A stretch of 63,805 bases of DNA, counting the filler, from Dirinaria sp. TL-2023a (Eukaryota): assembly GCA_051941275.1 (NCBI GenBank). It is 3 parts of 3 records of this genome, joined end to end, with 100 filler letters (N's around TTAATTAATTAA, not from the genome) between each part and the next. Parts side by side here need not be neighbours in the genome. Positions count along the whole stretch, not along the records: positions 1 to 21,268 come from JAVEBF010000263.1; 2 more parts are not named here. One strand, given 5' to 3'. Each line of letters starts with the position of its first letter. The first letter of the stretch is position 1. Below the pieces are notes generated by a model that saw only the letters and a program-made list of their open reading frames with translations, was not told the origin of the DNA and ran no database searches. Below are positions 2,129-42,646 of the stretch, in pieces. A program made the position numbers and the translations under genes.

Positions 2129-5100
2129 TTAGTGGTTTGCGTCAATAGTAGAAGACCGAGTTAGCTTCTCGTCCAATGACAGTGGAGTTAGCGAATCAAT
2201 CAAACGCCTCCATACTTGCGTGGCTTCATCCTCAGAATCGCCACCCGTCAATGTTGCTCTGTCACCAATAATAATGCAAGCACATCTGGCGCGGGTAAGC
2301 ACGACATTCAGCCGGCGCATATCTTTCAGGAAGCCAATGTCTGCATGTACATTACACCTGGTCGAAACAAAGATCACAACGTCTGCTTCCCGCCCTTGGA
2401 AACCGTCAATGCTATGGACAACCACAGCAGACTTTCGCAGCTCCTGCAGAAGCTCCACTTGCCGAGAATATGGAGCCAGGACCGCCACTGAAGGATGTGT
2501 AGGAGAGCTACCTGGGTCGCTTGACTCTGGCAGCAGCATCCTGCATGCTCTTTTGGTAAGCTCTGCTTGACCTTGGTTGCTTTTGGATTTGCGGCCTAGG
2601 TCTTCAGTGGCCGAACACTGCAGGAAGAACATGCGCGCAAGCTTTCCTTGCTCCTCGCAAGGCCATGGGAAGGATGCTGGGAGGAGAGGTCGGTCTTCAT
2701 CTTGAACAGCGGTCTTCAAGCGGCTTTCATAGAATTCTGTCGAACTGAACGCACTTATAGAGCTCTGCATCCGATACTGAGTATCCAGCATCACTTTGCT
2801 CAGAAATGGACGATGATTAGGTAAGGAATAGAGACGCTCGAACATGGAGACTTCAAAGCCGACGAGTCTGGCGTGGTGAATGACCGTGGCTCGAAGCTGA
2901 ACGTGGTCACCAACAAGGATGGCCTTAGAGCACCCCTTGGCCAGCGGAACGAGTGACTGTGGCTCCGTCTGTTGCGATGCCTCGTCGATGATCACAGTGT
3001 CGAACATCTCAGTTCGCAAAAGTCCAAGACCTGCGCCAATGCATGTTGTGAAGACCATGCGACACTGATTAATCTGCCTCTGGGCCTTTTTACGACCTGC
3101 CGGATTCTCGTTCAGGTCCTTACCGTACATAGCGTCACAAGTGTATTGCCTCAGATCTTCCGCAACCCTTCGAACCTAAAAAGATGGTCAATCTCCAGCG
3201 AGACGTTACGATACGTTGATCAGGGACTTACATCGGTCGAGACGCGCAGAGCATATTTCACACCTCCGCCCCGCATTCTTGCATGAGCCAAGTATTTCCT
3301 CATGATGTTATCCACGGCATTATGAGTGGGCGCTGTAACCAGTATTCGGCGCTCAGGGTTCGATGAAAGAAGCTCGAGAGCGACAGCAAGCGTATGAGTC
3401 TTGCCTGTGCCAGGTGGTCCCCAAACACACGTCAAGGGACTGGTCATAGCCAGCATAATTGCATCCTCCTGGCTCTGGTTGAGATCGTCACGCTGGAGCA
3501 CAGTGATGCCATCGTTGGCCTCATCCAGAAAGTGATCATCGTCGAGTGCTAACAGTCTCGATTGAAGGTTGCAAAATCGTGCTGGTGCGGTGATGAAATT
3601 ATTGAGTGCCTCGAACATCGCTTTGCTCGTCACAAAAGACCCACAGTGCTTCACCCTCCACGAGCATTCTTCGAGGAAAGGGGGGATGGGATGCAAAAAT
3701 CGGAAGGAGACATATCCTGGCTGCGCTGCCTCAACTAAGGCGTCGACTGAAGACGGTCTGGATTCAAGGCTGTTCGTCGGTAGAGTTGATGCCGTGAATT
3801 GGACGTGATCATTTGCATGGAATCGTATTGAGGAATGAGAGTCAATCCGGACATGACTTTTCACAAGTTCTGTCTCCACATCAAATGTTAGGTTGAGCAG
3901 ATCTTCCCGGACTGATAAAGACTCATTTGCTTCGTCAGCATGTTCGATAGCAATTCCAATACAGTTCTTGACAAAATATTGCACAAGCTTAGGCATTCCC
4001 ACTAGAAGTCGTGTGCTCTCTGGTTCAAGACAGCCGAGGAGAAGGTCAAGCACTACATCAGGCGTATGAACCATGAGAGAAATAGTCTCAGTCAAGTAGC
4101 TAAATGATGTGAATGAGAGTTGTGATACCTGTGATAAAGTGTATTTAAAAGGCTGGACCACAAGGAAGTTTACGTCATTTGCTGATGCTATGATGGAATC
4201 AAGGATATCCATCACCCTCTCATTCAAGAGTCTCTGAATAGGTTCACAGAGTTCTGCCCACAGCCCCAGGCGTGTAAAGGTTATCACCAGAGATGGCCGT
4301 TTTCGAAGAAAGTCCACCATCTTTTCTAGCACGAAAGGCTTTGGCTCTTGATGGGAACGGACCGTAACGGAAGATAGGAGATGCTCGAATACTGTCCGAA
4401 GCGTGACATTTTGACCATGACTCAGTAGCCATTCAAGCAGTTCGACCTGTTCTTCGGGCTGTTGCAGTGTTGGAAGTTTGAAGAATTGTGCATCTCGTGC
4501 TATATCGCAGATGAGTGCTGGTGTCTGAGCCCAGTCGACGTCTTTCATAGTTGGTAATGCATATTGCTTTTCTGTATTGTCGAACAAAGGCAATGTCTCA
4601 CGAGTATCAATCAAGCTAAGCCACTGATCCAGTATTTGTAGAGATCTACTGTCTCGATTACTGATGACGTAGACTTCTGCTCCGACGACGGCGTTTCTGT
4701 TAATCCTACCCACATGCTTGGTCAGGCTAGCGCTGAATTTGCCGAGAGCTATGCTCATGATCCAATCATGATTGGTACCTTGCTCGAGAGTAGCAAACCT
4801 GGCTCGTCTTCTATCCCCTTGGCCGGTAAGATCTCTATAAGTTGAATCATTAGAACCCGGTTTGGTAAGAAAGACCCAAGTGTTTGCTCGCTTCGTCTGG
4901 TAGAGTTGGAAGCCCCCGTCATCCAAGTACAGACGATAATCAATCTTAGTATTGAGAGAGAGTCGATGAGTAGTAGAGCTTTCCTGAGAATGAGGGAACG
5001 CAAAGAGGCGAACTCCATCGTTGACCACGCATTCTTGACTCTTTTGTACGCGACTTGGGATGTAGATTGCGAGGGTCAGCCTTGTGTCGGCTCGAATGAC

Positions 5101-7412
5101 GATCAGCTTTCGATGGAATAGTTCTGCGACTCGGCCTGTAGTCTCCATGAACCTACCCAAACGGTCAGTACTGGAGTCGAAGACGCACTTCCACCTGATC
5201 AAGGGGATATCAAGCTTGAAATATCGAAGCTCTTCCGTGGAAAGTAATTTGGAACCTAAAAGGGCGTTTTGAACCAAGCTGGGAATATATTTTTCAGGAG
5301 GCAGTTGTGCGACCACCCAGCTCTTCTCCTCATCCGACATTTGATTGAAATCAAAGTAGTCAAGAAAATCTTTCAGTGGATTTTTATTGCGAGCGCACCA
5401 CTCTGCTGTCATTTTGAAAAGCTCGAACTCGGAAAACGCTACGTTGTCTCTGCACAAGAGCACTTCTATCCCCTCTGTTGGCAGACCACTCAGCTGAGTC
5501 GCCAAGTGAAAACTAGACACTAAGACTTTAGCATCTTCGTGGAGAGCATCCAGAACGAACGGTGAAGCACTAGCAGCCGACTTCGGAGGCTCTTCTAAGT
5601 GGTGAGGGACCTTAATGCGGTTTCCGTCGACACACCTCGAGAAAAGATAGTTCAATTCTTGGCACTCTGAGCTCATGGGTCCGTTCAATCTTGCCCAATC
5701 CATGTAGAGATTTTTGACTCGACCGAGAGACGCATTCGTGTATGCCGCAAAGTATCTGAGCCGGTCATCATAGGAAATCTTGGCAAAGGTGACCGGTTCT
5801 TCCGCGCCCTGGTAACTAGCAGCTTGCGAGATCCTGCTTGGAATGAGATCGCTGTCCCAACATACAAAAACTGAGTTTTGGTCAGTGGATTGTTCAGCAT
5901 AGAGAATCATCTCTCACATTTGTCCCCATCGAGGTCTCCTCCTGACATCAGGTCGGCACTTGGACGCCGTCCTTGAGTAGGGAATGCTATGCAGTCCACC
6001 AGGTGCACAAGTTCGTCCCGCTGAACAGCTTTAAATTTCTGCACGTCTCCGGGATGCAGACAGGGATTTCTGGTCACGAGTACTTCCGTTCCCACAATGG
6101 TTCTCGGTACACCGTCTCCATCCATTGTGATTCTAAGAAAACATTCCCCGCTCTTCAACGAGGCTCTTGGGTCACATACCCCGAACACGAGCCTCGATTT
6201 TGGGATAAGAATTCGGCATCTTTGTTCATCTCTCTTGTTTATCATTCTGCTGTATTCGTTGTTGATGCGACCTCGTACTGTTGCTTCCACGGATTCAAGG
6301 CCTTCCATCAAGACTCTTTCGGCCAAATGTGGCTCATCGAGGTATGAAAGTAAACGGAAGGCAGATCTAGCGTCACGAGGAGCCGTAGAAAGGAAGTCCA
6401 GATACTCTCTTTGTTTTTGATGAAAGGTAGAATGTGGGATTCCCAAAGCCTCTAAAAGCAGAATAATCTCATCGTTTAGATAGCCAAAGCTGTACGGCTT
6501 GGAGTATTCCACAACGGAAAAAGTGAGATCAGGTGTATTCTCGATCTTCTTCATGGAATCTCTGAACTGAGCCAAAATCCGGCCCTTGAGGTTGGGTTCG
6601 AGCTCCAGTACTCCTTTGTACCCTCTATATCGAATCTGGAAAACAGAGGGCAAATATCGGTTGTTACGAAAGCGAATATCGAGCTTCTGTACCAACAGTC
6701 GGGCCAGGTGTGTTGAGATCAGGCCACAGCCGTCAGTAAATTTATAATTGCCCTGCGTAATATCTGGAATGTCTTGGCAACGGTCTGGCTGGAGCTGGCT
6801 TGCCACTTCGGCAGCAGAGAAGAGAAGGCCGATTCGTTTGGCCAACTTTGCGACCGTCTTGATTTTGGCAAAGTCTCCCAGAACATTGATTTTCCTTGAT
6901 ATTTCCTCTTTACTCGCCGCACAAAGGAAGCATGTCTTCGATTTCAGCTGGCTATTGCTGTGTCCATAGAAGCGATACTGAACATTGTTGATGTAAATCC
7001 CAGAGCTCAAAAGTCTCACGATATATTCGGTAGATTCTTTTGGTGGCGTTGGTTGTGACTCCTCGGGGCTTTTTGTTCGATATTCGTTACTCAATGGATA
7101 TTGGAGTCTGAATTTCTCAAAAGAGATAGATATGAAGCAATCTAATGCGTCCATGTCCACTGCCCTATTCGCAAACTGTCTCCTAAACCGCAGAGTAATT
7201 TCTTGCCTCTTTCGATCGGAGACGACGGCGATCGATTTGATGAAGCCAAGGTTATTGGTAATCGACGGTGACGGTAAATTTGGTACTGTATAAACCCATC
7301 GTTGATCATTAGGTCGAATCTCCCGCTGGAGAACGTAGCAGAAGTTTGATAGCGGGGTCGAAGCCATACTTATTGTCTGCTGCCGCGATAATCGTTCAGC
7401 TAAAGGTTGCAT
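2129..7412 (-). CDS. Fusion protein: cellular (RNAi-type) RNA-dependent RNA polymerase + BACK-like segment + UPF1/DNA2/NAM7-like SF1B helicase, ~1726 aa (exons 7412-5918, 5870-3232, 3175-2129)
   Basis: RdRP motifs: TDGCG, FQIRYRGYKG, RNPCLHPGD, SGGDLDGDK|FFVCWD. Helicase motifs: LNQSQ, GPPGTGKT, APTHNAVDN, IIDEASQ, GDHVQL, QYRM, DGFQGRE, RRLNVVLTRAR. Introns 5871-5917 (GTGAGA..CTGAC..CAG) and 3176-3231 (GTAAGT..TAG) join the three ORFs in frame (5181 nt). Confidence 0.88.
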
Positions 7413-7753
7413 TTACTGGAATTGCCTTCTCTGCAAAGCTCATAGGATACAACGGCCATGGCTCGTTGAAATGTGCAAAATCTCCCAGTAGGCAATCAAA
7501 CACAGGACGCTCTTCGTGCTATGCTGCGACGATCGCTGATACAACTTGTTGAGAGGTTGGGCGCATGCAGTGATAAATTCAGTATCTTGAAGGGAAAAAA
7601 GGGAGGGGTCATCGGCGATATGACGGACCGTCACTGGCCCTCGCTTGATCGTGAACCTCGACCATGTGAGGTGATATCCAACACAACCAAAGACTGTCAG
7701 CATCATCCACTCCCTGACCAAATCCAGTGAGTGATCTCTGCCCAAAACAAGCA

Positions 7754-8395
7754 ATGACGACCGGACGTCGTCTCGAAACGATGGCATCGAGACCACCTAA
7801 TATCTACATCATCGGCGCCCAAAGCACCGGCAAAACCACCCTAGTTTCTGCGCTGGGCCAGCACTTCAGTCAACCAAGAACCTACTGCGACGAGCCAGTC
7901 AGCCAACCGAGGATCATCAAGGAGGTCGCTCGTAATATCCTCCGCTCGCACCATTTCACAGCCTCCGATATTGCAAACTCTAAACACAGAGCTTTGGAGT
8001 TACAAAGTCTCATACTCGAGGCCCAATCCGAGCTCGAACGAGCCTCTTTACCAGATTGGTACATCTCAGATCGATCCGGTCTCGATCCGCTAGCGTACGC
8101 TCATCGATACGTAGGACACGAGGCGGCGAAGCAACTGAGACAAGGTGAGGCGTGGAAAGACGTCGAAAAGAGACTGGGAACGGGTCTGGTAGTCGTTTGC
8201 GCAACAGGAGGGGATTGGCTGATCGATGATGGGATCAGGCTGATGCCGAAGAGCAAAGATGACTGGATGGAGTTCCAGTCTATTTTTTGCTCTCTTCTTG
8301 ACGAGTTGGAAATGCAGTATACCATCTTGCCGAGTTCAATTAGGGATCTCGCGAGCAGGGTCGATTTTGTTCTTGAGAGATGGAAACATCGATAG
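7754..8395 (+). CDS. NadR/AAA_28-type P-loop nucleoside/nucleotide kinase-like protein (ATG at 7754 or 7781)
   Basis: NIYIIGAQSTGKTTL Walker A, IIKEVAR, ISDRSGLDPLAY (the DRxxxD motif of NadR/dNK-type kinases) and DDGIR. Single exon. Confidence 0.8.
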   Translation: MTTGRRLETMASRPPNIYIIGAQSTGKTTLVSALGQHFSQPRTYCDEPVSQPRIIKEVARNILRSHHFTASDIANSKHRALELQSLILEAQSELERASLPDWYISDRSGLDPLAYAHRYVGHEAAKQLRQGEAWKDVEKRLGTGLVVVCATGGDWLIDDGIRLMPKSKDDWMEFQSIFCSLLDELEMQYTILPSSIRDLASRVDFVLERWKHR

Positions 8396-9945: not shown

Positions 9946-11247
9946 TCAAATAGCCTGACCAGCTCCAATCCATACTCGGTAGCTATACCACGGCCCTTCC
10001 CGTGCATCAACATTTCGATACTGGAAAGTCGGACTCAACTCCAGCTGATTTGTACAGAAATATAGATATCCGTCCCAAATCGCAGCCGAATCGGCATGCT
10101 GAATGAGTCCGCTTCGAACCAATGTCTTGACTACATAGTTCTCTGTAGCTACTGGCCCCTCTCCACCACTTTTCACACCATTGACCTCCTCTGTGATGTA
10201 CTGCTGCTGGGTCTGGACCTGGTAGATGGCGTTTTGCTCGCTCGCCATCATGTACAGGACCCCTTTGTCGTCCGCCGTAAAGCCAGCCTGCTCAGAGCCT
10301 AATTGACCAGGAAAGGCGACTGCATCTAGTACTTCTTGATCGCTGGCCGATAAATTGGCTAAGATGGACTGCGGGATGTAGTAAAATCTACGCGAGGCGA
10401 GCACGCCCCAGTACACGTTCCCAGACTGAAGAGCGATGCCGTCCGACCCAGTGTGCGTGAACATCTTCTGAGTCCCGTTCCAGCTATAGACAGGCTGCCC
10501 GTTATAAGAGCCCACATAGCCGGGGTCTGCTTTGACGACCGAGGTGTTGAATAGACGCCGTACAGCGGAACCACTATCGAGATCGATAGCAACGAGGGAG
10601 CCGTATTGGCTTTCATCGGTGATAAACGCAAAGCCACCTGTCCCGACGGAGTTATTGATACGGACGTCATTAGCATTCATGCCATCATGATAAAGCGCCG
10701 GAGGAATAGGATAGCTCCGGATCAGGCTTCCATTGTTGGTCAGATTGAAAGACATGACTTTTGCGCCGTTAGGAGTCGCGGCCATGGAGCCTGGAGGAAT
10801 GCCGCTGTCAACGACCCACATTACGTGCTCTGGGTCTTTTGGGTCAAGGACGACGTTTTGCACATTGATAAAGCAGGTAGAAGGATCTTGATTGCCTGTA
10901 CAATTCTGAATTTCCGCGTTCGGCCATGCTCTTTCGTCTGTGAAATTAGTGGCGATTACTACATTATTAGGAGTCGCTCCAGTGTTTCGAGGGTAGGTTA
11001 GATAGACGTTCAAGGAAGGGTCAACGGCAAAGCCGGTAGGCGGTCGCTCCACGCTGGCATGAACAGCTTGCAGAGGTGGTCCGATGATGTCGAATGACTG
11101 CGGTGTCCCACCAATACTGAGATTGTTACTGTATGTCTGACCGCCTTCGAAGGGTGGACACGCTAGAAAGGGACAATTGGTTGCAACAAGACTTTGGGCT
11201 GCTAGAAGGTTTGCAGCCACAGACAAGCATAAAAGAATAGCAATCAT
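9946..11247 (-). CDS. Secreted major royal jelly protein/yellow family beta-propeller
   Basis: Signal peptide followed by FINVQNVVLD, MWVVDSG, NANDVRI, FAFITD, SDGIAL and LYFCTNQL motifs; intact 433-aa ORF. Confidence 0.85.
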   Translation of the reverse strand: MIAILLCLSVAANLLAAQSLVATNCPFLACPPFEGGQTYSNNLSIGGTPQSFDIIGPPLQAVHASVERPPTGFAVDPSLNVYLTYPRNTGATPNNVVIATNFTDERAWPNAEIQNCTGNQDPSTCFINVQNVVLDPKDPEHVMWVVDSGIPPGSMAATPNGAKVMSFNLTNNGSLIRSYPIPPALYHDGMNANDVRINNSVGTGGFAFITDESQYGSLVAIDLDSGSAVRRLFNTSVVKADPGYVGSYNGQPVYSWNGTQKMFTHTGSDGIALQSGNVYWGVLASRRFYYIPQSILANLSASDQEVLDAVAFPGQLGSEQAGFTADDKGVLYMMASEQNAIYQVQTQQQYITEEVNGVKSGGEGPVATENYVVKTLVRSGLIQHADSAAIWDGYLYFCTNQLELSPTFQYRNVDAREGPWYSYRVWIGAGQAI

Positions 11248-12486
11248 TCTGAATGTAATTTTGTAGTCGATTTCAGTTGTTCACGAATGGCTGTTGCAAG
11301 AGCTGGTCTGAAAGTTTTGTTGAATTCAGTCTCGAAGTTGAGTGTGCAGCGTTTGGTCTCTGGGATACGTCATCATCCTGCGTCTAAGTTCCGGCAATTA
11401 TTCACAGCATCGCCGCGCTCAGCAAATGGAACTTAAAACTTCAGATACTCATGACGGATTATTCTGCATTGGAACTTCGTGACGGTATCTGTGCTAAACA
11501 CGCATCACTTATTGCCCGGTCCTTTAGCCACCGCTGCCTGCCAAGCTTATCTACGGTTGAACTGCATCGACCACAGATAATCGGCAATTCATGGAACAAT
11601 GATACCCATTCGATGTTATCCATGTGCTTGGCATGTGGTGGCAGTGAGATAAATATCAGTGTATAAGCGATGATAAAGCTGAGCAGATGAACATACGATA
11701 TGACGTTGTATATGTGGCGGTGGGGTGGCTGGGTATATGGTAGTAAGTAGACGATCAAAAATCACAATGTTTACTTCCAGATGTTGACTGAAAAAAAGCA
11801 GCTCGTTAAAACTCCCGCTCTCCATGACATAACGGCGCATAGCGGCTTAGGGCAAACGAATTTGAAGAACTGCCTGTTTCCGCTGGCCCGAGCTATGGTC
11901 CCTAGCGACGCTAATTAGTACGATACGGAGTACGGAGTACATACGCACTACGTACAGTAGTGAGGGGAAGCCAACGAAATCCCAGAAATAATGCCCCGGT
12001 AAATGGACCTGTCCCTGCATATATGCGACGCAAGATTGGTTCAAGACGGACATGCACAGCCGCCCTAGCAGACACCTGACCCTAGCCACCGCTGCTCTGG
12101 GCCTTGACATGCTGAAAATTCCTCACGAAATACAATTGCGATCTTTGCCTCCCTACTGCTTCAAAATGATTAGAAGCAAAGATCAGCAGATTAATCGAGA
12201 GTGTTCGGGGGGGGCCGGAAGAGGAACGGTAAGGATTCAGGATCTTTTGCAAGCGTACTGAGTAGTACGATCAGTGCCGACATCGGCACACTTTGCTTCC
12301 CGCATCCTTCCGCCAGTCATGCGACTGCCACTTCGTAAGTTTCTACCTTCTGTACCATCTTGTGCAGATTTCAATGTGTAATAATTTATCTCCTTTCTTT
12401 CCTTCGCCTCTCTCTTTTGGTTTCTTTTCGAGAATTCACTGCCTGCTTGTCGCATTGCAAGATAATCTCTGATAATTATCGTAAAA

Positions 12487-16947: not shown

Positions 16948-18987
16948 CTAATAACCGAAAGTTTCACTATGCAAGGCAATACTCTCGACCTCTCCTCTCC
17001 AGATTCTAGCTTGTAGTTTAGCGCAAGCGTTGGATACGTCGATCTTGAGACTCTCTGGTCCACAGCCTATTCGTCAAGTCAGTCTGCTTGCACTTTTCCA
17101 AAATCTCATGTAAGTACGTTGACTGACCAATAACCATCGTTCGACCAGCTTCTACAAGTAGATTAGCAATCACCTCCTTCAAACACGGTCTTCCGGTTTT
17201 GTAGCCAGAGCCTCGGTCGACCATGAGATGTCCATTATCGTGCTCCAGATTTCTCAGTCCCGACGGTGCAGGCTGAGATACTGCATTATGGTTTCCCTTT
17301 TCCAGGTCGTTCTGAGAGGGTTTTGAGAAACTAGTAGCCTCTCTGGTGACATGGAAGAAATTCTCGACGAAATCGAAATCTTCTCCCAACACTTTATGAA
17401 CTTCATCGATGCTCTCCTCGATCCATTTCAGATGCTCCGCACGCCGAACTGCCCAGACCAGCTTAACAGAGGTCACTCGCATGCCTGTCCCAGCTGATCG
17501 TTTCATCGCTAAGTGTTCCATCCAAGGCAAACAGGCTGTCACCCCACCCCCACCAGCAACGAGCACGATTCTATCGAATGTGTTTTCGATTTTGTATGGA
17601 ATACCGCCAAAGGGACCCTCGAGTACAGCCGTTGACGGCGTTCTCGATTGGGACTGTGCGTGAGCCGCAAGTGCTTTGGTGAAGCCAGCATGGGTCCGGA
17701 TATAGAAAGTAACCTTCTGCGGATACGAGCCTCCGCTCTTTTCTCTGATATCATCAGCGCTCTTGAAAGCGGAGGCGGATGTGAACGGATGGTTTCCAAA
17801 CAGATCAAGGCCCGGGACCCGGACAAAGAAGTGCTGCCCGGGACTCCAATTTAACGTTTTTGGTGCAAGGATGTCAAGCCTTGTCATGCCACCCACCAAA
17901 TCCCTTTTTTGCATTGGTGAGCCATTTATCCAGCTCTCTCGAATATTGACCGCGCGGTTGAACCAGAAAACCCGCGCAAGCAGAGTAGCGAGCCAGATGG
18001 CCAACGTCGCCCACAGGTAATTCCAGGAGTCGCCTTCCCGGCCAAAATGCCAGAAGCAGAGGCCAATGTAGGTGATATAAAGGAGGATATGGAGGAAATA
18101 AAAGGATTCATAGAAGCGGTTGCGTATAAAGGGGATTGAAAAGACGGTAATGCCCGCCAGCATTGCTAGAGGAGGAACGCCGGTATACTACTCGAAGATT
18201 CTGCTGTTAGAAGGACATTCCAGCTAACGATGGATAGAAAGAGACATCGTAGGTGCAGGGGGCCAAAGAGGATATGTACCTCGAATGCGCCTGGTTTATA
18301 GAATTGCTTGTGCAGCGCTGCGTACCCACCATCCCTATAAGGAGCCACAAGAAAAGGCACCGTGTGTACTACACTTAGCCCCAAACACATATAGCCTACC
18401 CAACGATGGACGATGTTCAACCGTTCGTGGCTGATCCCTGTAAGCAGCGTGACAAGGTTTGCTTTTCCAGAGAGGACTACGATCAGTGGCGTGCAAGCTG
18501 CGGCCATCAATCCCGTACGGACAGCCAATGGAGGCGAGCCATACCCCCGATGTTGGCGGTAGTAGGGTCTGACGGAGAAAGTTAGTATGCAGAGGAAGAG
18601 CACACTCAGGAGTAAGATCGTGAGGAGGCCAAGAGAAGGTAAGCCCAGGCGGTCGAAGAAGGAACCTCGAAGACGGCGGTAACTCAAGAAGCGTACTGCT
18701 GCGACGGATTTTGTTTGTAACCTTGTCGAGAATGTTGGCCGCGTGCTCGACTCTGGTACCTTAGCAGTGATGAAGCGGTAGACGTTTAAGATAGTAAAGA
18801 CGAAAATGATGATTGCATAGTACCAAGTAGTCCAATGGCCGTATTCGTATTGATGGTAGTAGGAAACATGCTTTTGCGAGGCATTGTGCGCGGCTTGAAA
18901 GGCAGTACAAGAGTCGTTGTTGCATCTAGGATCCGAGAGTGTTAGATTCTCAATGGGATTCGGACCATAACTCGAGTGAATGCTCAT
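16948..18987 (-). CDS. Ferric/cupric reductase transmembrane component (FRE family)
   Basis: SHERLNIVHRWVG, YESFYFLH, WSPGQH, NHPFT (FAD binding), LEGPFGG, LVAGGGGVT (NADPH binding) and C-terminal LHSETFGY; two introns. Confidence 0.9.
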
Positions 18988-21268
18988 TGCGAGAGGCTCT
19001 CGGTGTGTTTGTGCAGCCTAGATCGGGTATTGATGCAAATAAAGACGAGTGTGGTATGAACAATGTAGTTTCTATCGATCTTGCACAACAGCATTCGGCG
19101 CTTCGAAAGCCAGTAACAGCGGTCTGTAAACTCCGTAGTGACAGGAGTGGATCTTCTCTGGGAAAAGCGAATTATTGAGATACTTCGACTTACTCGATGA
19201 TTATAAAGTGTTGTCTGGTAAACTGCAGCTGGGTGAGATGGAGGATAAACTCAAACGACTTGATTGTGCAGAGAAGATCCTGCAAGATGCATCGAAGGGG
19301 TTTGAATAGTCTTACATGAACATCAGGACCTACATTCGTGGAGGCTTAGGAGGTTGAGGATCGCCTGGAAGGCAATGACTGCATGGCTGTGATCCCTGCA
19401 ATGTGATCGTAAAATCTGCTCAAATTCACGCACTAATCTTGAACATCCAACTCCACAGAGAACAAACCCCAGACTAGCCAAGTGCTTCAGAAAAGAATGT
19501 GGACATGATCGTCGCAATGTTCTGCAGTGTGACCCAATAATGTGCTCAAACTCGCGCATTCTCCCGCCACTAGGCTTAGCGCGTTGCAGCTGGTAGTAAG
19601 AACACACATCAGGACTTGATGTCTGAGTTCAGCGAATGATGACCGCACTCGGCGCCTCTGACTTGAGTAGTGTGGCGAGGAACAAGCCTACCCCTTCTGG
19701 GCCTTCTTCGAGACTTGAATATTTCAATGGAGCTTGCAGCAGTTGCTTCGATTCACCGGCTCAAAAGATGTTTTTCACTGGCATCCTTTGTTGAAAATAT
19801 GATACCAAACAGTGTTGCACAAAACTCTTGAAAACATGCAGGCCGACCGGGTCAGCTTTAAGCCTGATCTCGATGCCAGCCCTTGAATAGCATTTGAATG
19901 TGGCAGCAGCTCCGCTGTGTTCGAACACCACCTATTGCGCAGAAGAGAATGATGTTCTGAGCAATGAGGCAATCCTTGCAGAGGCTTTATCTCTGCAATT
20001 TAGCACATCAACTTCGACGTTTCGATGTCGATTGCTTGGTCTGTGCACTGCAGTCAGCCCTCGTAAAAGCGCTATATTTGATCAATGTATTGTACCAAAA
20101 GCCAAACGAGATCTCCGTGTGTAACACTCATATCAGCAGGGATCGTGGGACTTGTGATCAGCTCGCGATCCCAACTTGCGTCCTCGAAAGCGCAGAATTA
20201 AATCTCACATTAGACTTGACGTAAACGTGGCGATAATTAGCATTTAACAATCTGTTTGTGAATGCTACTGGTGTCGGTATTGCTCTGACAGAATATTTAG
20301 GTGTTGACCCACGCGCTGCAACTCGACTTGATTGATAGCATCATAATGCTGGCCTTTCATTAGCACAATCGCATTGAGATTTGTATATTTCTTGATACAG
20401 TCATTGGAATTCTCGTTTTTCCACAAAGTTACCATATTTGGAGCGCTCAATAGCTTAATAGGCGAGCAGAGGAATAGCAACAACCTAATAGGAAGACTCA
20501 CGACAAGAACCTGAGAGGTTGATTTATTTCCTAGGGTCTTTGTGGGATATAGACTCGTCGCTTACTTGCTTTTAGCTTTGCTATATGCTTGAAACTTGAA
20601 TAGACAGCTGAAAGCCAAAGCTTACTAGATTTTTTGTACTATGCGAAACAAGATCAGGGCTGCTCATCGCTGTCGTCTTCACTAAGATACATTGATGAGC
20701 ATACCTTCTGCTGCTGGAATTTGCGAAGACAGAATGGCGAACGTAAGTTAATGACATTGTTCTGGATCACTGACAAGTTGCGGAGCGGACAAGGAACCCA
20801 AGAAATGATTTGTTTCCCATTTGGAACTGATTTCAAATCTTGAGGCGTGGTCAATTCTTTATGTCCAAGACTCCAAGCACTGAGACCAAGTCAGGATCTG
20901 GCTGCGATTCGAATACAATTGAGGTCGTGTGTCGACTCGAGGAAATAGCATACGCTGGTCAGATGTTCGCCGTAGATAAGCATGAGATACAAAATCTAAG
21001 GCGGTATGCGTTGTCGTAGCAATTGCTTCTTCCAAGTCCCAAGCTCGCCTGCAAGCCTTTTTCCTTTTCTTCTTGCCTTTGGTTGAATGAGGCTTTAAGA
21101 CCAGATCATTCAGCCATACCCGTGTAGAAGTAACAACACATTCCGGGCTCTAGACCACGTATTATATGACCGCCGGTAAATTGCAGCGCCGTCGCCAATG
21201 GCTCTGAGATTACTCGTATTCACCTACTTTGTTGCGTCACCTACTTTGTTGCGAGGGTTAGGGTTATC

Positions 21269-21368
21269 NNNNNNNNNNNNNNNNNNNNNNNNNNNNNNNN
21301 NNNNNNNNNNNNTTAATTAATTAANNNNNNNNNNNNNNNNNNNNNNNNNNNNNNNNNNNNNNNNNNNN
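21269..21368. other. Assembly gap (N run with TTAATTAATTAA linker)
   Basis: N run containing the artificial six-frame-stop linker. Confidence 0.97.
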
Positions 21369-29223: not shown

Positions 29224-31529
29224 TTAGCTGAGAATCCTTTTACCATCCTCTAGGTTTTTGAGCTCTCTTTCCAGTTGTGCCCTCCTCCGCTTCAATGTCA
29301 GATCCTCTCCAGCCACTTCCTCAAGCTGCGTAGGAGTCATCTCCGCCACGAATGCTGGCGAAAACAACGTCAACGGTGTGCGTGGTCCCGTTGTCAAATG
29401 ATAGTCAGCTGCCTGCATGCGGATGCAGTCAACGAATCTTTTGCGGGCCACTTTATAGTACGATTGCAAAATATCATGAAGATCTTGGATCGAGTGGTTA
29501 TCGTTGCTCATCGGATGATTTTGAACAACGTCGTCAAGCCTGACAACTTCGTGTTTGCCGTTAGAGAATGACTTCTCTTGCATAGCGGCGTGAAGTCGTT
29601 GCTGACGACTAGCAACATATCAGCTGGTCAGCCTTGCTAATACAAGCGGATCTTCACTCACCATTTTTGCAAATTCTCATTAAAGTAGTGGTTCAGCGTT
29701 GCTGGAGTACCGTCGAGCTCTACCTCTAATAAAAACTTGACGTGGGAAATTGCGGACTGATATCTCTCTAACAGTCGATCTATAAGCAAAGACATGATGC
29801 CCGTTCGAATCCTTTCGAATGGACAGACCACACGTAAGAGCTCAACGATAAAGTTGTGAACCATTGTTATAATGTCTGAGATGTAACCCAGTGCCAACTT
29901 CTTCCACTTTACGGACTGATGCTTCATGGCCACTGCCAACAAAGACAAATTGAGAGTGCCGATTTCGAAGCCTCGAGAGTTTCGATATACGTGTTCCAGC
30001 CAAGCGCGAAATCTCCCGCTGTGCGGTTCGGGCAGCTTTTGTGCAGCCGAAACTAGATCTTCGAGCTCTGGGTGGTCGCTGGTTGTACGGATATCAACTA
30101 CGCCTTCAGCGTTCCCATCTTCTATACCCATGGCCGAAATATCGATGACTAGAGAATCGACATCGTCGGAGGCATCTGATTCATCTTCGTCCCCAGCCTC
30201 GAAATGAAAGGTATGTCCTTTCGTTGCGATGGTGTCAGACATTTGTTTGCTGCGATTGACCACAGCGGTTGCAAGTCGGAGGGTTGGGTTCTGGTCAAAG
30301 ACATCGGTGCATCCGTAATTGGATAGCAATGCTTCTCCAGATAACTTCTGAAATTGCATGGCAGCTTCCATCAGATATTGACTCTGTTGCGCTGAAGTCT
30401 GGCGGCTTGTTCCCAGAGCCTGCAAGTCTTGCCGGCACCCTTTTAATTTCTTGGTAATTTCTAGTTTCACCTGACTATTGAGCATCGATATCCAAAGAGA
30501 CCTATCAGGCAGGCGAGCTTACCTGGGGAAATTCGCGACGGGTGTTATCTGCAAGAACTTCCTGTAAGCGAACCCGGAAGGATTCAATGCCCACTTTATC
30601 TTTTTCCAATCCGTTCCATGGTGCCTTCTGGAAGAAACTCTTCCCTAGGGTTTGACGTTCAGTGACGGGCTTGTGAAGTTCCGCTTGATCAGCGTTACGG
30701 AGTATATGCCAACCAAGTTTGAGCTGATGTGTTCTGCCCTCGATCAAATCTATCACATTCTTTTCCGCACCTTTGTCGACTAAATCCGGCTTCGTGAGGA
30801 CTCCAAGAGTCCTCGTCCCCTCCGGATCCAATTCTTCAGCTCTCTCAAGGATCTCTTGGGTAGCGATATCGACGTTTGCCGGCACCACGACCAGCATGAT
30901 ACACCGCGCGTTCTTCATATAGTTATGGACCATGCCTTCCACCATTTCTATATCTGCCTTGGTCGTCACTCCTAGTGTAGTTCTCTTAAAGATGCCAGGG
31001 ACATCAATGACGCTTAAATGCTCTTGGTTAGGACCGGTCATCTCAATGCGTAAGACGTCGTTAGAGAATGTACTCTTTAGGCCAGACTCATCGCATACGA
31101 GGCCCATCACGACATTCACCTTACCGGGTTAGTATTACGGTTAGCCTTAGAGATCTGACATACCTGCTTCATAATATTGGCAAACGATTCTGCGTCTAAT
31201 GATTGCAATTCATTCGGAGTCCAAGAGCAACAGGCTGCTTTGTGTTCCTCGGTTGCGTTCTCGGCCGGAATCACTGAAACTGAAACATGTGTCTCTTGCG
31301 ACCGTCGAAAGATGATTTGAGTTGCGAACCGCGTGCACAACCCGCTCTCTCGAGGGAATGGAAGATTCGTCAGGGCTTCTAGGACAGAGCTCTTGCCACT
31401 TGACTGGTCACCAACGACGACCAACTGTGGAAGATCGACATATTCTCCAACGTTGCAGGCGAAAAGCCCATCGATCTTCTCGAGAAGATCTGGGCTTGCG
31501 AGCCCAATACTCAAACCATCGCTTTCCAT
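29224..31529 (-). CDS. Mx-like dynamin family GTPase, intact, ~718 aa (exons 31529-31164, 31119-30523, 30470-29662, 29608-29224)
   Basis: LPQLVVVGDQSSGKSS (G1), LCTRFAT (G2), IDVPG (G3), LTKPD (G4), C-terminal GED; three canonical introns give a 2157-nt open frame. Confidence 0.92.
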
Positions 31530-31852
31530 ATTTTCGGGTCAATCGCGAAGGGATCCGAAGGCGAGATTGGAAACTTGGAAGTCTAGATGAATTTAAAACC
31601 ACAAAGAAAGCTGGGCTCGAGATCGTTAAATTAAAATCCAGAGATATTTGAAGAACGCAGTCGATCTCCTTGTATGCGCATGTCTAAGGGATAAAGCTAA
31701 ATTCCTGTGTAGTTAGCGAATACAAGGCTCCTCCGGCTGGAGAGTTGCATCTGAGCGCAACTACAGTATACGTCCATCGCCAGCACCGGGGCAGTGGAAA
31801 TAGTCGGCCATGGAGGCGTTGTAACACGGCGTGGAGAAGCGACTGCATGAAG

Positions 31853-32204: not shown

Positions 32205-34668
32205 ATGGGCAAGCAAAATGTATATTCAATCTCCGTGCTAGATTGTGCTTATTGCTAATCCTTCATGGTTGGCATGATCAGACCCCGAATTTGATAACAC
32301 GCTCGGTCTGGGATGGTATAGATAGGCGGTCCTTTTTTGAGGAAGCTATTCTCCTCTCTGATGAAAAGTATCGCTCTCAAGGCCATCCTCTAAAGCTGCA
32401 AAACAGGAAACCAGATGCAAGCTCAGATCCTGCGGATCAAGCGGACCAGCTCCTGCAAATGACGCCTGACTTTCTTAACGACCTCGCTCTCGTCGCATCT
32501 GGGCAGGGTGGGCCCGATAATGTAACCGCAACGTGTTTGGAACTGAGCGACGATGGGCAAACACATATACTGCGAGTGGCCAGAAATGGCGGCGGTCACG
32601 GCGATTTCCTCGCAGGGATGAAAGATATAATTACAGCTGCGGGTGAGGAGTCTTTTACCGGTTCAGAAAATCCAGAAAAAAACTTATTTGTTTTCGTGTC
32701 CCAGCAAGTGATTCAGGTCTACTGAAACCGCTAGCCATCGAAAAGATTCTTCTCAGATGCAAATCCCGCGTCAAAGAACAAGCTTTTCGGTTGAACAACC
32801 GATTTCAATTTGTCTACGGACACCATCACAACCACTACATTCATCCGGGGATCCAGGCGGGATCTTATGTCGACGAATCGTCGCAGGATATCGAATGCCT
32901 TGGTCAGTACTGCCATGAAACACATGAGTCTTATATGTGTCTCTGTGAGGAGCGTGTCAGGCAACTGAAGAGAGCCACCGCCGAGGTCATTCACCCGTCA
33001 ACGATCGGTGAACTCAAAGGGCTTGTTGATTTGAGTCGATTGGCCTACAGTGTCCGCCGGTCGAGCAGCTTCAAGCATTTTCTACAAGCGAATTTGAACA
33101 GGCGGCCGGAGCCAGGTATCAGTTTACCAACTATGCTGAAGATCATCGAACGCTTGGGTAAAATCTCCAAGATCTATCGAGCAGCTTTGACAATAAACGA
33201 CTTTGTTGCCAAGACCAAAGAGCTCGGTCGAAAGATCGTCATCGAAGCGATCCCGGCGACGAGAATCCCAATACCTGAACTGGCTGATCGAACTGCTACT
33301 CAATTGCGTGAACGGGCGGGACTGCGATTCAGACGGGGCAATTCTGACAAGGTTGAGCGTATGCTCAAACGCTGGCCACTATATCGACAGCACGCGGAGA
33401 TCCAACTAATAATTTTTTACGAGGAACATCCACATATCCATGTATACAGCAATCACATCGGATGTAACAAATATGCGTGCTACCTTTGCTTCAATTTCAT
33501 CAAATATCACGCGGTATTTCAAGTCGACGGCGGCCACCAATCTCTGTATTCTCTGTGGACAGTAAAAGATACCATCAGTTTCAGCACTCGGGAAAGAGCC
33601 GAGGCGTTCCAATCTGCGCTAAAGAGAGTCAGTCTTGATGTTGAACAGAAATTTCAACAGCTCAAAGCAACACGGTGGAGCCGTTTCGGTTTTGCTACTG
33701 CAACTGAGTCTCCGACCAATCTCTCGCGGATCTCGTTGTTCCCTGCGCTATCTCATAGTCAAAAGACACTCAAAGAGATGAGCATCTCAGCTGCCGTCTC
33801 GCAGGTGCAGCTGGCTTCAATACGAGAAGCTCCACTCGAAGACCTTGCTGAGGTTGAAGGCCATCGCAAGCAGACGGCTGTCGAACAGCCGAATTACGAC
33901 ACAACCCAACCCGAAATTTGTTCCTCGTCTCCTCTAGCCACAGTTCGTGCCCCGTCTTTTACCCCGACAAGCAAAGTTCTACATTCGTCGTCACTTAATG
34001 CCCGCATTTCATCTCCTAACGATTCCAACTCTTTTTCCGATATCTTTCAAACGTCAGGATCGCCGCTCGACATTACAGGCGTGTCCAGCGACGTCCAGAG
34101 CATCGCCTCCAAGAATCTCGTCGTCGAGCAACGGCGTGAAACGCGAATTACCCAGCGTAATATTCCGCCTTCCGCTACGAGTAGAGTGGTATCGCCACAA
34201 GCCTCAGGAGCTTATTCGCTGGATGAATTGGAAGTTCCAAATTCTGAGGAAGGTAGCCCTGCCGGCGTGGTGCGGCACCATGAGCATCGCCGACGATATC
34301 GACGCTTTCGCGGTGCTACATCGCCTCATAAGGGGATGACCGCAGAGCGCTGCACAATACTTCTTAGTCGACGAACTCCGATGCGCCAACATAAAGATTC
34401 ACCCGGTGAACCTGGAGAATATTGTCGTCGGAGGCGGAGAAAGGTTCGCAGGGTACGACATCAAGCACCTGAAGTATCGGCGCGAGATGTGGGCCACCCT
34501 CCGACGACACTTCCGTCTAGGAGAACGGATAAGCTTCGAAGTAAGCGGGTTCGAAGGCACAAGCGTGAACGGCGGAAAGAGCAAGGATGTTTATCAGGGC
34601 TTATCATATTCTTCAAAGAATTATTGCATATTGAAGTAATGAAGTCTATACGGTCCAGGCAAAAGTGA
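32205..34668 (+). CDS. OTT_1508-like nucleic-acid deaminase with a long disordered, basic C-terminal tail (multi-exon)
   Basis: HAEIQLIIFYE...HIGCNKYACYLC zinc-deaminase motif and HQSLYSLW; N-terminal LALVASGQGGPDNVTATCLE and LRVARNGG are typical of the fungal members. Probable first exon ATG at 32205 with intron ~32220-32281. Confidence 0.78.
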
Positions 34669-39545: not shown

Positions 39546-41950
39546 CTACGGTGCAGCACTCCTCATCACACCACGAAAAATACATCTTCCATCATTCAAC
39601 TTCTTGATCTTGTTTTCAAGGAGATCTCTCTGTCTTCTCGCCGACGGAGGCTCGGAGGCGATTGCTTCTGTCTCCGTGTCAGACAGCCCGTTCACTGTGA
39701 CGGGAGAAAATATTTTCTCCAGGCCGCGCACGATGTGCCGCTCTACCGTCTGGGTGATGATGTTATCGATAAAAGTTTTTTGGGAAAGCTAAGCAGAGTG
39801 GGTGAGTGGTAATCGATCAGGTGAGTGCACAAGCTCACTGACCTTGTAAATCGAATATAGACAGTCCAGAGCTTCTTCACAGCTGTGATTCTTCATGTCC
39901 GGATCTACCTCGTCAGTATATTCTCGCGCCGCTTTTCCAGCATCGACTTGTGCGCTTGTATGATTCGAGTTACATCTTGGAAGCATGACATGTTGGGTCG
40001 CGTTGTCGATGCAACTGACTAATGACTTTTCGCTTCTCTCTCGACGTCTTTTCTTGATCGTATCCGTGTAATAGTGATTGTATGTTATCGGGTAGCTTTT
40101 AATGTCTTTCATAATCTTATCCATTTCTTTGAGCGAGCCGTCTAGTCTCAGCTTCAGAGCATCTTCGATTTTGGGTGACCATAGACGGGCGTATACGTCT
40201 TTGGGACATTTCTCTTTCAGCAAATCATCAAGGAATCTGTGGCAGACGTCCGCAACATCCTCAATGTGAAACTCGGCCATTTTTTGCCACTTGCTTGATT
40301 GCTCCCAGAAGAGCTCGCCAACCAACAGTGGATTGAAATTACCGAGTAGCTCTTTGCCACGGGTGCGAACAAGAACACTTCGGACCCAGCCCATCGCTCT
40401 AGGTTTAGACCAACGAATGGACGCCGCCAGCTCTGCCGTTGAGGTAAGAGGAGCTGCATCTGTCTCAGCTACTTCACCGTCAGTCTCCGCATCCTGTTTG
40501 CCGATGTGATATTTGTAGCCGCGCGTGCGCAAACGATTGAAAAATTGGCCGTTCTTGGACTGAATAACAGCCCTCAGTCTGCGTCTTTCCAAGAAAGATT
40601 CTGCTGCGAAGAAACGATCGATGTTATCAGCAAAGTATTCTCCTTCGTAGTGCCCGTTGACTGCGGCTTTGCAAACCTCATAGAAATCTAGGCTGAGCTG
40701 AGTCAAAAATGCTTTACACTCCTGCGGCGTAGCTCTTGAGATACTCATCGCCGCTAGAAAAAGCTGTGTCTTCGTAAAAGCATCTTCGAGATCTTTTCGT
40801 AGTTTCGAGAGCTTCTGCTTCACGTAATCGAAGAGCAGCTGACTCAGACAATTTCTCAGAGACGTGATTCCCACGTATTCTTTGAACAGAGTGGAAAAAT
40901 TCGATTTTCGAAAATACATCGTCTTCGAGAAGTTGCGTTGTTCAAACGAGTTCGAACCCTTTTTATAACTTCGATTCTTCAATACGTATCAACTCAGTTT
41001 GAAGAATATGTTCTCGTTACGTGCTAAACCGAGAAAGGCTTGTTCGCTGTCGAAGCCGCGAGGCAATCGATCGAGCTTGAGGATGATATCAAACGTGCGA
41101 TCTCCTTTGAGATCAATTTTTCTGATCTTCTTCAGAATGTCTTGATTAGCATAATCATTGATCGTCGAGATCACAGTCAGACAAATCGTACGAGATTGAG
41201 AAATATAATGATCGATGATCTCGATGATCAGCTGAACGTTTTTTTCGATCACTCTCTTGATCTCAGTCTAAATTAGATTCGAAAGATCGATCAGCGTCAG
41301 TTGAGATCTGAAACGTCCTCCGATTTCGATACTCAGAACATTTTTGACGAAGACCCTAGACTTAAAAGCAGATATGTTTTTGAGACTCATAAAAGTCGTT
41401 GTCTTGTTCATCAATAAAGATAGCTCTTCAAAGTCCGAGATAAATTCTTTGAAATCTTCGATAAGAGCTCGTTCTTCGACGAGCCTTTTATTATTCGATA
41501 TCACTTTGACCGTGATAACGTCGTTCGTCGCACGACGTAAAATGATTTCTGTGACGAATCGCGTGCAAAGATTATCATTTTTTGAGAATAAGATTTTCTT
41601 GAAAGCTTCGAGAACGAAGCTCTTATCAACTCATTGATCGCCCCAAACAACGAGCTGAAATAGACAGCGTGCTTTCAAAATCATATTAACGAAACTGATC
41701 GACAATATTGAGTACGTTTCGTTGCTCGACGCTTTGAAGATCTTTAAGAGACGAGTTTATCTTTAACGATTGAGACGAATTATTGATCTCAGATTTCATA
41801 AAGCTGTCAACGTCGAAGAGATTATCTAATTTGTTCGATATCAGTAAAGTACAACTGAGACTAGCGTATACAGAGACGTGAGCATTTACTCAGAGATCTG
41901 ATCGAGAAATCTCAATGTGATGAGTCGAACTCTGAGCACGATGAAGACAT
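39546..41950 (-). pseudogene. Mx-like dynamin GTPase pseudogene (GTPase half heavily mutated, stalk/GED half nearly intact)
   Basis: LFQLVVWGDQ*VDKSFVLE, LCTRFVTEIILRR, LTLIDLSNLI* and ILKLD are damaged G1-G4 motifs with stops. The 3' ORFs RGKELLGNFNPLLVGELFWEQS, YPITYNHYY and the GED remain open. Confidence 0.88.
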
Positions 41951-42546: not shown

Positions 42547-42646
42547 NNNNNNNNNNNNNNNNNNNNNNNNNNNNNNNNNNNNNNNNNNNNTTAATTAATT
42601 AANNNNNNNNNNNNNNNNNNNNNNNNNNNNNNNNNNNNNNNNNNNN
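42547..42646. other. Assembly gap (N run with TTAATTAATTAA linker)
   Basis: N run containing the artificial linker. Confidence 0.97.

Follow-up and report, generated by a model that had tools for sequence, protein, structure and literature searches.

An RdRP-helicase gene and an AAA_28 kinase-like gene form a conserved divergent pair in ascomycetes beyond background synteny, as confirmed here by comparing a locus of Dirinaria sp. TL-2023a with homologous loci from named species and metagenomes. The locus lies in a stretch of 63,805 nucleotides from assembly GCA_051941275.1 (hereafter the window, along which all positions are counted), in the part derived from JAVEBF010000263.1. While the RdRP-helicase fusion protein was known already, its conserved pairing with an AAA_28 gene is described in no paper found. 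The two genes occupy positions 2129–7412 on the minus strand and 7754–8395 on the plus strand and are separated by 341 bp from ATG to ATG, in agreement with the first-pass annotation of this DNA, which had described a tight head-to-head pair with about 340 bp between the starts.

The RdRP-helicase gene

The structure of the RdRP-helicase gene (2129–7412, minus strand) was derived from ORFs, domains, spliced RNA contigs and the deposited model P0125. Three minus-strand ORFs (5907–7412, 3220–5910 and 2129–3130) are joined by two GT..AG introns into one gene with exons at 7412–5918, 5870–3232 and 3175–2129 (stop included). Intron 1 (5871–5917, minus strand; 47 nt) interrupts the codon after the catalytic DLDGDK and is documented by an RNA joint, 5870>5918, in run X3. 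Intron 2 (3176–3231, minus strand; 56 nt) lies within the AAA_11 region of the helicase and is documented by the joint 3173>3230 (cut +2) in X1, X2 and X3. Contigs from the RNA library of a lichen metatranscriptome carry both splice joints, indicating that the gene is transcribed. Translation from the first ATG gives 1726 aa, and a start at the second Met (7367) gives 1711 aa; P0125, with 1711 aa, starts at the second Met, is 100% identical to the window gene and has concordant introns.

The N-terminal part contains a cellular RdRP domain (PF05183; 5590–7148, minus strand) that scored 336.7 bits where the cut-off is 23.8, with E-values of 3.8e-100 on exon 1 and 6.7e-8 for its continuation on exon 2. 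Its catalytic DxDGD loop, GGDLDGDK, lies where exon 1 ends, and this GGDLDGD motif is nearly invariant among 44 sequences. An Upf1-like SF1 helicase core (2189–3495, minus strand) spans intron 2, with Pfam matches to AAA_11 (5.1e-16 and 2.6e-23) and AAA_12 (6.3e-46), a Walker A motif (GPPGTGKT), a Walker B motif (IIDEASQ) and a motif VI region; its fold matches are Upf1 and SETX. PADLOC yielded an MkoA-type helicase match to P0125 residues 1276–1692, its helicase matches being generic only. Between the two lies a beta-rich middle domain (4609–5190, minus strand; model pLDDT 81.8), whose best fold match is tentatively a TLDc domain (Foldseek 7obp_F, E 1.3e-2, TM 0.66 by target); the Pfam TLD model did not match it.

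By sequence comparison, the large gene is the orthologue of Fusarium graminearum FgRdRP5 (FGSG_09076). The RdRP parts are 49% identical, both proteins combine RdRP with AAA_11/AAA_12, and FgRdRP5 has 1721 aa compared with 1711–1726 aa here. Most of the best 120 long homologues, FGSG_09076 included, are proteins of about 1700 aa with RdRP, AAA_11 and AAA_12. C. parasitica rdr4 and C. higginsianum RDR2 were considered as counterparts and set aside as irrelevant, since both group with RRP-3 and not with the window gene. The domain architecture of FgRdRP5 was published in 2015 (PMC4515635), and its deletion was reported in 2024 to reduce ex-siRNA and ascospore discharge (PMC11237814); the suggestion that the system was undescribed thus has to be dropped for the RdRP-helicase itself. 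In the available portions of both reports the gene is treated singly and the divergent AAA_28 neighbour is unmentioned.

The AAA_28 kinase-like gene

The partner gene (7754–8395, plus strand) encodes a P-loop kinase-like protein of 213 aa with no constitutive intron, as supported by Pfam, a fold model and RNA contigs, which come from the same RNA library and cover the gene. PF13521 (AAA_28, NadR/Ttd14 AAA domain) matched with 91 bits, above its cut-off of 27. The Walker A motif and DRxxxD motif noted earlier are both present: the P-loop GAQSTGKT (residues 21–28; 7814–7837, plus strand), in which G21, Q23, G26 and K27 are invariant in 19 orthologues, and SDRSGLD (residues 105–111; 8066–8086, plus strand), of the DRS type found in deoxynucleoside kinases and aligning with the LDTD of NadR. 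Both motifs are nearly invariant among the 19 orthologues. A third motif, DDGIRLMP (8225–8248, plus strand), is invariant across the family, aligns with DDGFRHME of NadR and served as a search pattern.

The proposed assignment to NadR/dNK-like kinases agrees with both sequence and predicted fold. The NadR RNK domains (PDB 6gye/6gyf, 8x7f and 1lw7) provide the best sequence match (E 1.2e-5) as well as the best fold match, the model (pLDDT 88.7) matching 8x7f and 6gyf with TM 0.66 and probability 1.00. NadR RNK and the fungal protein have the P-loop and the E-x-A-R, D-x-D/DRS and DDG-x-R motifs in common, but the latter stands alone, without the NMN adenylyltransferase or HTH domain of NadR. A full trifunctional NadR (regulator/NMNAT/RNK) was rejected, as the 213-aa protein corresponds to the RNK-like part only, and the NadR equivalog level was not reached (TIGR01526, 23.5 bits vs 341; NF005988, 17.4 vs 201). 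PF01712 (deoxynucleoside kinase) matched only the distant homologue at metagenome locus L034, with 22.7 bits against a cut-off of 27. PADLOC returned nothing meaningful for the kinase-like protein. The name "nicotinamide riboside kinase" that JGI gives to orthologues is an automatic annotation.

Of 1070 family representatives, the best 150 include no fusion of AAA_28 to RdRP or helicase; the long representatives in this set were P450 or ricin fusions, or unannotated. A quick and poorly resolved AAA_28 tree was used only to pick representatives to name. A possible alternative GT..AG intron of 56 nt (8059–8114, plus strand) is suggested by loose contig ends at 8114 (X1–X3) and contig breaks at 8059 and 8114; its excision would shift the frame and remove the DRS motif. 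Complex prediction between the kinase and residues 96–765 of the exon-2 region, covering the middle domains only and run without alignments, gave a score of 0.00 and is uninformative either way.

Conservation of the pairing

In all 14 named species with both genes in one assembly, the locus tags or accessions of the RdRP-helicase and AAA_28 genes are consecutive. These are Gyalolechia, Wetmoreana, Calogaya, Flavoplaca, Cudoniella, Glarea, Nemania, Diplogelasinospora, Rosellinia, F. nygamai, F. gaditjirri, F. austroafricanum, F. poae and F. culmorum, representing Lecanoromycetes, Leotiomycetes and Sordariomycetes. This set speaks to adjacency only, orientation being known for 23 metagenome loci and the window. 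Eight further pairs were matched by size of contig alone, and no pair was seen apart. Eurotiomycetes and Pezizomycetes have the RdRP-helicase, and an AAA_28 gene occurs in a Chaetothyriales; the sightings of adjacency come from other classes.

A metagenome search with the kinase alignment yielded 43 loci. The RdRP-helicase lies immediately upstream and divergent in 23 of these, which represent about 15 distinct lineages and are by best match Leotiomycete-, Sordariomycete- and Dothideomycete-like, along with a very distant pair (L034). The kinase ORF is intact in 23/23 linked loci. Sixteen loci were too short upstream for judging, two of which (L027 and L030) carry a stop. The remaining four had enough upstream DNA and were unlinked, and all four kinase copies are pseudogenes with stops, frameshifts or deletions. 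RIP was rejected as their origin, as their dinucleotide indices show no difference from those of intact copies. Flanking ORFs were common only to close relatives, with none common between lineages or with the window. The kinase-like gene is kept head-to-head with the RdRP gene across at least four classes and decays when separated. The first-pass annotation had made its proposal depend on conserved linkage and correlated expression of the two genes, and the linkage-based refutation fails because the pairing is conserved, in 14/14 species and in 23 divergent metagenome loci.

The shared intergenic region and expression under mycoviruses

The divergent intergenic region (7413–7753) is a putative bidirectional promoter, as judged from its spacing and from homologous spacers. 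It measures 341 bp between ATGs, or 386 bp with the RdRP start at the second Met (P0125); RNA contigs extend to about 7528 from the RdRP side and begin at 7696–7709 on the kinase side. Homologous spacers at 14 loci span 175–574 bp, making a compact version of the shared promoter that had been proposed plausible. An oriented GTTACACAA motif occurs in 9 of these 14 spacers and is missing from the window spacer and four others; in a control of 300 shuffles, no 8-mer occurred in more than five sequences.

Expression data for the F. graminearum counterparts are available in the supplement of PMC4071046. Under FgV1, FgV2, FgV3 and FgV4, the log2 change was −2.1, 4.78, 3.80 and 3.42 for FGSG_09076 and −1.28, 5.69, 5.25 and 2.52 for FGSG_09077, a pattern that the flanking FGSG_09075 and FGSG_09078 did not follow (PMC4071046 supplement). 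Both genes rise 14- to 50-fold with FgV2 and FgV3. Because the two genes adjoin in F. poae and F. culmorum, and FGSG_09075 is a Zn2Cys6 factor, we infer that FGSG_09077 is the AAA_28 gene; cluster look-ups, the supplements of PMC11237814 and PMC6028722 and identifier searches yielded no direct proof. FGSG_09076 and FGSG_09077 are co-induced by FgV2 and FgV3, which would extend to the AAA_28 gene insofar as FGSG_09077 is that gene. The kinase-like gene appears to be co-induced by mycoviruses.

Interpretation of the pairing

These data have led us to favor, as on balance probable, the view that filamentous ascomycetes carry an ancient two-gene unit whose members are inherited together and probably co-regulated. 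One gene encodes an RdRP5-type enzyme, which combines a cellular RdRP and an Upf1-like RNA helicase with a region between them. The other is read in the opposite direction from a short promoter that the two probably share, and encodes a small kinase-like protein with a P-loop. Both genes may be switched on together from this promoter under mycovirus infection, under stress or in sexual development, with both proteins acting in one RNA-silencing-related pathway. The kinase could then be an accessory enzyme whose substrate, a nucleoside, a nucleotide or the 5'-OH end of an RNA, is one that the polymerase-helicase uses or produces. Both the substrate of the kinase and a role in "defence" are matters that we infer.

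Genes may come to lie side by side by accident, and gene order is retained among close relatives, but chance or residual synteny without selective meaning is exceedingly improbable in view of the same orientation and short spacer in the window and in 23 loci from about 15 distinct lineages, the adjacency in 14/14 named species from three classes, and the failure of any flanking gene to recur between lineages. Cis-regulatory hitch-hiking, in which an indivisible bidirectional promoter alone holds the pair together and the kinase belongs to unrelated metabolism such as nucleoside or nicotinamide-riboside salvage, is more probable than this but still unlikely. Promoter sharing by itself can keep short divergent pairs together, co-regulated gene pairs are known in general to keep their adjacency (PMC3500266), and the spacers are short (175–574 bp) with a conserved oriented motif. 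Hitch-hiking also predicts mycovirus co-induction with an RNA-silencing gene and accords with the lack of AAA_28 fusions to RdRP or helicase among the best 150 of 1070 representatives. However, promoter sharing alone leaves unexplained the death of 4/4 unlinked copies and the persistence of the pair beyond every flanking gene across four classes, and it is not obvious why a salvage enzyme should rank among the ten genes most induced by FgV2.

A dedicated antiviral module as suggested in the first-pass annotation, in which virus induces both genes and a nucleotide or RNA end made or modified by the kinase lets the RdRP-helicase restrict RNA viruses, is possible, if on the doubtful side. The 14- to 50-fold rise of FGSG_09076 and FGSG_09077 with FgV2 and FgV3 is consistent with it, FgRdRp5 is placed under "roles in the antiviral defense" in a review table (PMC6764512), and OLD-ZAO offers a fungal precedent for conserved neighbouring antiviral genes (PMC12754623). 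On the other hand, neither gene is induced by FgV1, and PADLOC yields generic helicase matches only and nothing meaningful for the kinase. The available literature reports no antiviral phenotype for RdRP5 or the kinase, leaving the defence-module claim unsupported. A more elaborate version of the two-gene unit, quite unlikely when taken as a whole, would have RdRP5-type polymerase-helicases depend on the NadR/dNK-like kinase as an accessory enzyme induced together with them. The kinase would make the phosphorylated substrate by which the RNAs of the pathway are defined, perhaps a special initiating nucleotide, for instance of NMN/NAD type, or an RNA 5'-phosphate licensing templates or products for Dicer and Argonaute. 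The two would then make up a virus- and stress-inducible RNA-surveillance module older than the leotiomyceta radiation, and the 56-nt kinase intron, which breaks the frame, might serve as its post-transcriptional gate.

Relation to known systems and significance

In the RDRC of S. pombe, composed of Rdp1, the Hrr1 helicase and Cid12, an RdRP likewise works with an SF1-type RNA helicase, and the third component is an accessory enzyme that handles nucleotides; in the window, polymerase and helicase are one polypeptide, the third component would be a P-loop kinase-like protein whereas that of RDRC is a nucleotidyltransferase, and a physical complex is hypothetical. The genes for vertebrate viperin and the nucleotide kinase CMPK2 also diverge from each other and are induced together. 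This parallel, drawn in the first-pass annotation, is an analogy only; the window pair has no radical-SAM enzyme, there is no homology and the kinase families differ.

In Neurospora, OLD-ZAO is a conserved pair of adjacent, mycovirus-responsive genes that act together (Honda et al. 2025, via the commentary PMC12754623). Its proteins, a deaminase and a zinc-finger factor, are unrelated to the window pair, and it works through RNA editing of the transcript of the adjacent gene. The window also carries an OTT_1508 deaminase; no ZAO-like zinc-finger gene was found beside it among ORFs of at least 70 aa at 34.6–39.8 kb.

RdRP5-type enzymes are the least understood ascomycete RdRPs, with mild deletion phenotypes and, in the literature available, no named partners. 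The conserved pairing, the decay of the kinase when separated and the apparent co-induction make the kinase a concrete candidate cofactor that is cheap to test. Published RdRP5 deletions, or complementation constructs containing the promoter, may disturb the adjoining kinase gene. With OLD-ZAO as the first, the pairing would be a second case in which neighbouring genes of RNA-based responses in fungi are conserved, and suggests an unstudied partner in fungal RNA silencing.

The RdRP-helicase gene

The larger gene of the divergent pair (2129-7412, minus strand) is an orthologue of Fusarium FgRdRP5 (FGSG_09076). Reading of ORFs and splice sites resolves it into three long minus-strand ORFs joined across two short introns of canonical type (5871-5917 and 3176-3231, both minus strand), giving 1726 codons from the first ATG. 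Exactly these two joints are carried by RNA contigs from a lichen metatranscriptome, and since those contigs are spliced, the gene is transcribed. The four RNA runs (X1-X4) come from one sample of one study and are 95-99% alike, indicating a close relative as their source. The database protein P0125 (Dirinaria sp. TL-2023a Q9191_002589) is 100% identical and has this gene structure too, starting at the second Met.

Pfam places a cellular RdRP domain (3.8e-100) ahead of AAA_11 and AAA_12, which correspond to the two parts of an Upf1-like SF1 helicase, and the catalytic DLDGD loop, the Walker A motif GPPGTGKT and DEASQ are all present. The exon-2 region, when modeled (pLDDT 81.8), matches the N-terminal parts of the Upf1, SETX and Aquarius helicases. 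The best fold match of a beta-rich middle domain (4609-5190, minus strand) is a weak one to a TLDc domain (7obp_F, E 1.3e-2), with no Pfam match in its support.

The pair sits on the first of the three contigs, which are separated by N runs (21269-21368 and 42547-42646), so that linkage of genes across different pieces is not established. The same contig carries a major-royal-jelly-protein-like gene (9949-11280, minus strand) and a ferric reductase (17021-19017, minus strand), neither of which accompanied the pair elsewhere in a flank comparison of 16 loci. Elsewhere in the window, two further genes (29227-31538, minus strand, and 32647-34665, plus strand) include an OTT_1508 deaminase, with the domain found in Neurospora OLD proteins, which are described as antiviral RNA-editing proteins (PMC12754623); no zinc-finger ORF was found beside it at 34.6-39.8 kb (ORFs of at least 70 aa), and 39792-40988 holds a second ORF with a dynamin middle domain.

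The AAA_28 partner

The smaller gene (7754-8395, plus strand) specifies an AAA_28 protein of 213 aa (91 bits; Pfam cut-off 27), is covered by RNA-library contigs, and starts 341 bp away from the RdRP-helicase gene's first ATG. It carries the P-loop GAQSTGKT and the motif SDRSGLD, the DRxxxD of the first-pass annotation, whose description of a divergent RdRP-helicase/AAA_28 pair is thus confirmed by ORFs, Pfam domains, introns and RNA contigs. The best solved relative of the family profile is the ribosylnicotinamide kinase (RNK) domain of Lactococcus NadR (E 1.2e-5), and the two can be aligned at the P-loop, E-x-A-R, D-x-D/DRS and DDG-x-R motifs. An AlphaFold model (pLDDT 88.7) likewise finds NadR RNK domains at the top (8x7f and 6gyf, TM 0.66), followed by shikimate, thymidylate and nucleoside kinases. 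NadR has an adenylyltransferase domain, whereas the fungal protein shares the RNK-like motifs and fold without it; because of this absence and equivalog scores far below cut-off, orthology to NadR is ruled out. The protein can be read at most as a small-molecule, nucleoside-type P-loop kinase of putative activity, for which an RNA 5'-OH may also be a substrate.

Nearly all family members stand alone at ~200-260 aa (132 representatives with E of at most 1e-30). Among the best 150 of 1070 family representatives, the few longer ones are fused to P450 or ricin domains or have no second domain, and none is fused to an RdRP or helicase. Three weaker relatives, carrying a cytochrome P450 (two) or a ricin-type lectin domain (one) (P0499, P0502, P0413), could reflect merged gene models or form a subfamily of their own.

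In runs X1-X3, RNA contigs are interrupted at 8059 and 8114 (plus strand), and a contig starting at 8114 bears 28 extra letters matching ~8030-8057, implying a 56-nt GT..AG skip (8059-8114) within the kinase coding sequence. Splicing it out breaks the reading frame and takes the conserved SDRSG motif with it, and the skip may thus be a non-productive or regulatory splice form. A Stachybotrys gene model (P0308) likewise lacks the equivalent stretch.

Conservation of the pair

With 19 aligned fungal kinases (A1) as the query, 43 metagenome loci were retrieved, and these were searched by tblastn with the products of the window's four ORFs. In 23 of the 43, or ~15 distinct lineages after merging of near-identical loci, an RdRP-helicase lies immediately upstream of and divergent from the kinase; another 16, with less than ~610 bp upstream, fall outside the linkage call. 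Judged by the named RdRP-helicase that each matches best, the linked loci fall into Leotiomycete-like, Sordariomycete-like and Dothideomycete-like groups (L021-23, 67-69% identical to Pleosporales; L024, 54% to Venturia), with L003 ambiguous and L034 very distant (36%). This last pair, on a 2-kb contig (L034:57-1950), is divergent with a spacer of ~196 bp; its kinase and RdRP are 32% and ~35% identical to those of the window, and three stops in the RdRP match may be introns.

Four loci (L028, L032, L037, L038) have no RdRP-helicase despite at least 1.2 kb of upstream sequence. Their upstream neighbors are an NLR-like NACHT gene, an MFS transporter, a FAD-binding oxidase and nothing recognizable, and the kinase is broken in all four by in-frame stops, frameshifts or P-loop loss; in all 23 linked loci it is a single uninterrupted match without stops. 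Two short-upstream loci (L027 and L030) also contain a stop; these six are scattered, inactivated copies of the kinase gene, in which dinucleotide indices gave no RIP signal.

Named species were surveyed with the kinase, the RdRP part (longer proteins allowed) and a Fusarium kinase orthologue, followed by comparison of locus tags, with accession look-up added for five more pairs and for F. poae. As the matches listed are the best 120 of 369, 674 and 597, they constitute a sample and not a census. Among them, the two genes have consecutive identifiers in 14/14 named species with both in one assembly: four Teloschistales lichens (Gyalolechia, Wetmoreana, Calogaya, Flavoplaca), two Leotiomycetes (Cudoniella, Glarea), five Fusarium (nygamai, gaditjirri, austroafricanum, poae, culmorum), Nemania, Rosellinia and Diplogelasinospora. 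No separated genes were seen among the matches listed. For eight further pairs (F. pseudoanthophilum, F. pseudocircinatum, F. beomiforme, F. longipes, Hypoxylon trugodes, Durotheca rogersii, Epichloe bromicola and P0028/P0130) the sole sign of linkage is that both genes lie on contigs of equal size; Seirophora lacunosa, F. proliferatum and Xylaria bambusicola, whose two proteins come from different assemblies, were left out of the count. Identification of ten family representatives by species showed that kinase orthologues also occur in Dothideomycetes (Mytilinidion) and Eurotiomycetes (a Chaetothyriales species).

As a synteny control, all flanking ORFs of at least 70 aa were compared between the window and 16 loci. 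Flanks are common to close relatives only (L003/L005 and L010/L013/L041), apart from two isolated matches at ~30% identity, and the window has no flanking ORF in common with any of the 16; the pair is therefore retained while its surroundings change. ATG-to-ATG spacers span 175-574 bp (14 cases with both starts placeable). The 8-mer GTTACACA occurs in 7/14 spacers, the best 8-mer over 300 shuffles reaching at most 5, and GTTACACAA, with one mismatch allowed, occurs in 9/14, in kinase-sense orientation every time; at that stringency it is not found in the spacers of the window, L001, L011, L013 and L034. Since the lineages are related, this candidate element is a lead and not a proven element.

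Expression in Fusarium

The RdRP plus helicase architecture of FgRdRP5 was described in 2015 (PMC4515635). Its deletion reduced both ascospore discharge and ex-siRNA in a 2024 study, which also reports ~10-fold induction in sporulation and sexual development (PMC11237814), and it is described as "strongly up-regulated" by the mycoviruses FgV2 and FgV3 (PMC4071046). The supplementary table of that report gives log2 changes for FgV1-4 of -2.1 (ns), 4.78, 3.80 and 3.42 for FGSG_09076 and of -1.28 (ns), 5.69, 5.25 and 2.52 (ns) for FGSG_09077, which also stands beside RdRP3 in what appears to be its list of the ten most FgV2-induced genes. In the same table all changes of FGSG_09075, a Zn2Cys6 factor, are ns, and FGSG_09078 shows 0.006, 0.53 and 1.13 (all ns) and, with FgV4, -4.1, the opposite direction. 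FGSG_09077 is very probably the AAA_28 gene, given that the two genes lie side by side in F. poae and F. culmorum and given what FGSG_09075 is. In F. culmorum, the RdRP orthologue is among the 20 most raised genes of a tebuconazole-adapted strain (PMC6028722, Table 1), so induction is not virus-specific.

The literature search, with preprint supplements and many subscription papers outside its scope, found no mention of the kinase being paired with the RdRP gene; the fusion enzyme is already known, and its conserved kinase partner appears to be new.

A model for the pair

Both genes are intact and lie divergent across a short spacer. They have been passed on together in, at a minimum, Lecanoromycetes, Leotiomycetes, Sordariomycetes and Dothideomycete-like lineages, and unlinked kinase copies decay. 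Chance adjacency is extremely improbable beside the consecutive identifiers and divergent loci. The first-pass annotation had named a lack of conserved linkage in other genomes as grounds for rejecting its proposal, and the linkage is conserved. Promoter hitch-hiking, with no shared function of the two genes, is unlikely: the short spacers speak for it and it would predict joint induction, but it does not account for the broken state of all four unlinked copies or for a pair that outlasts its flanking genes. A dedicated antiviral defense module, as first proposed, overlaps with a role in one pathway and is possible, if doubtful: of that interpretation the linkage and the probable co-induction under FgV2 and FgV3 (PMC4071046) hold, and the defense role and the mechanism are proposals.

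We modestly favor the reading that the RdRP-helicase and kinase form a functional module in one pathway. The pair resembles known RdRPs with accessory factors, in that the RdRP here has a candidate accessory kinase, and OLD-ZAO (PMC12754623), in being a conserved neighboring gene pair. In the model that we propose, a bidirectional promoter common to both genes would respond to mycovirus, stress and sexual development, the two products would act in one RNA-silencing-related pathway, and the kinase would serve as an accessory enzyme whose target is a nucleoside, nucleotide or RNA end.
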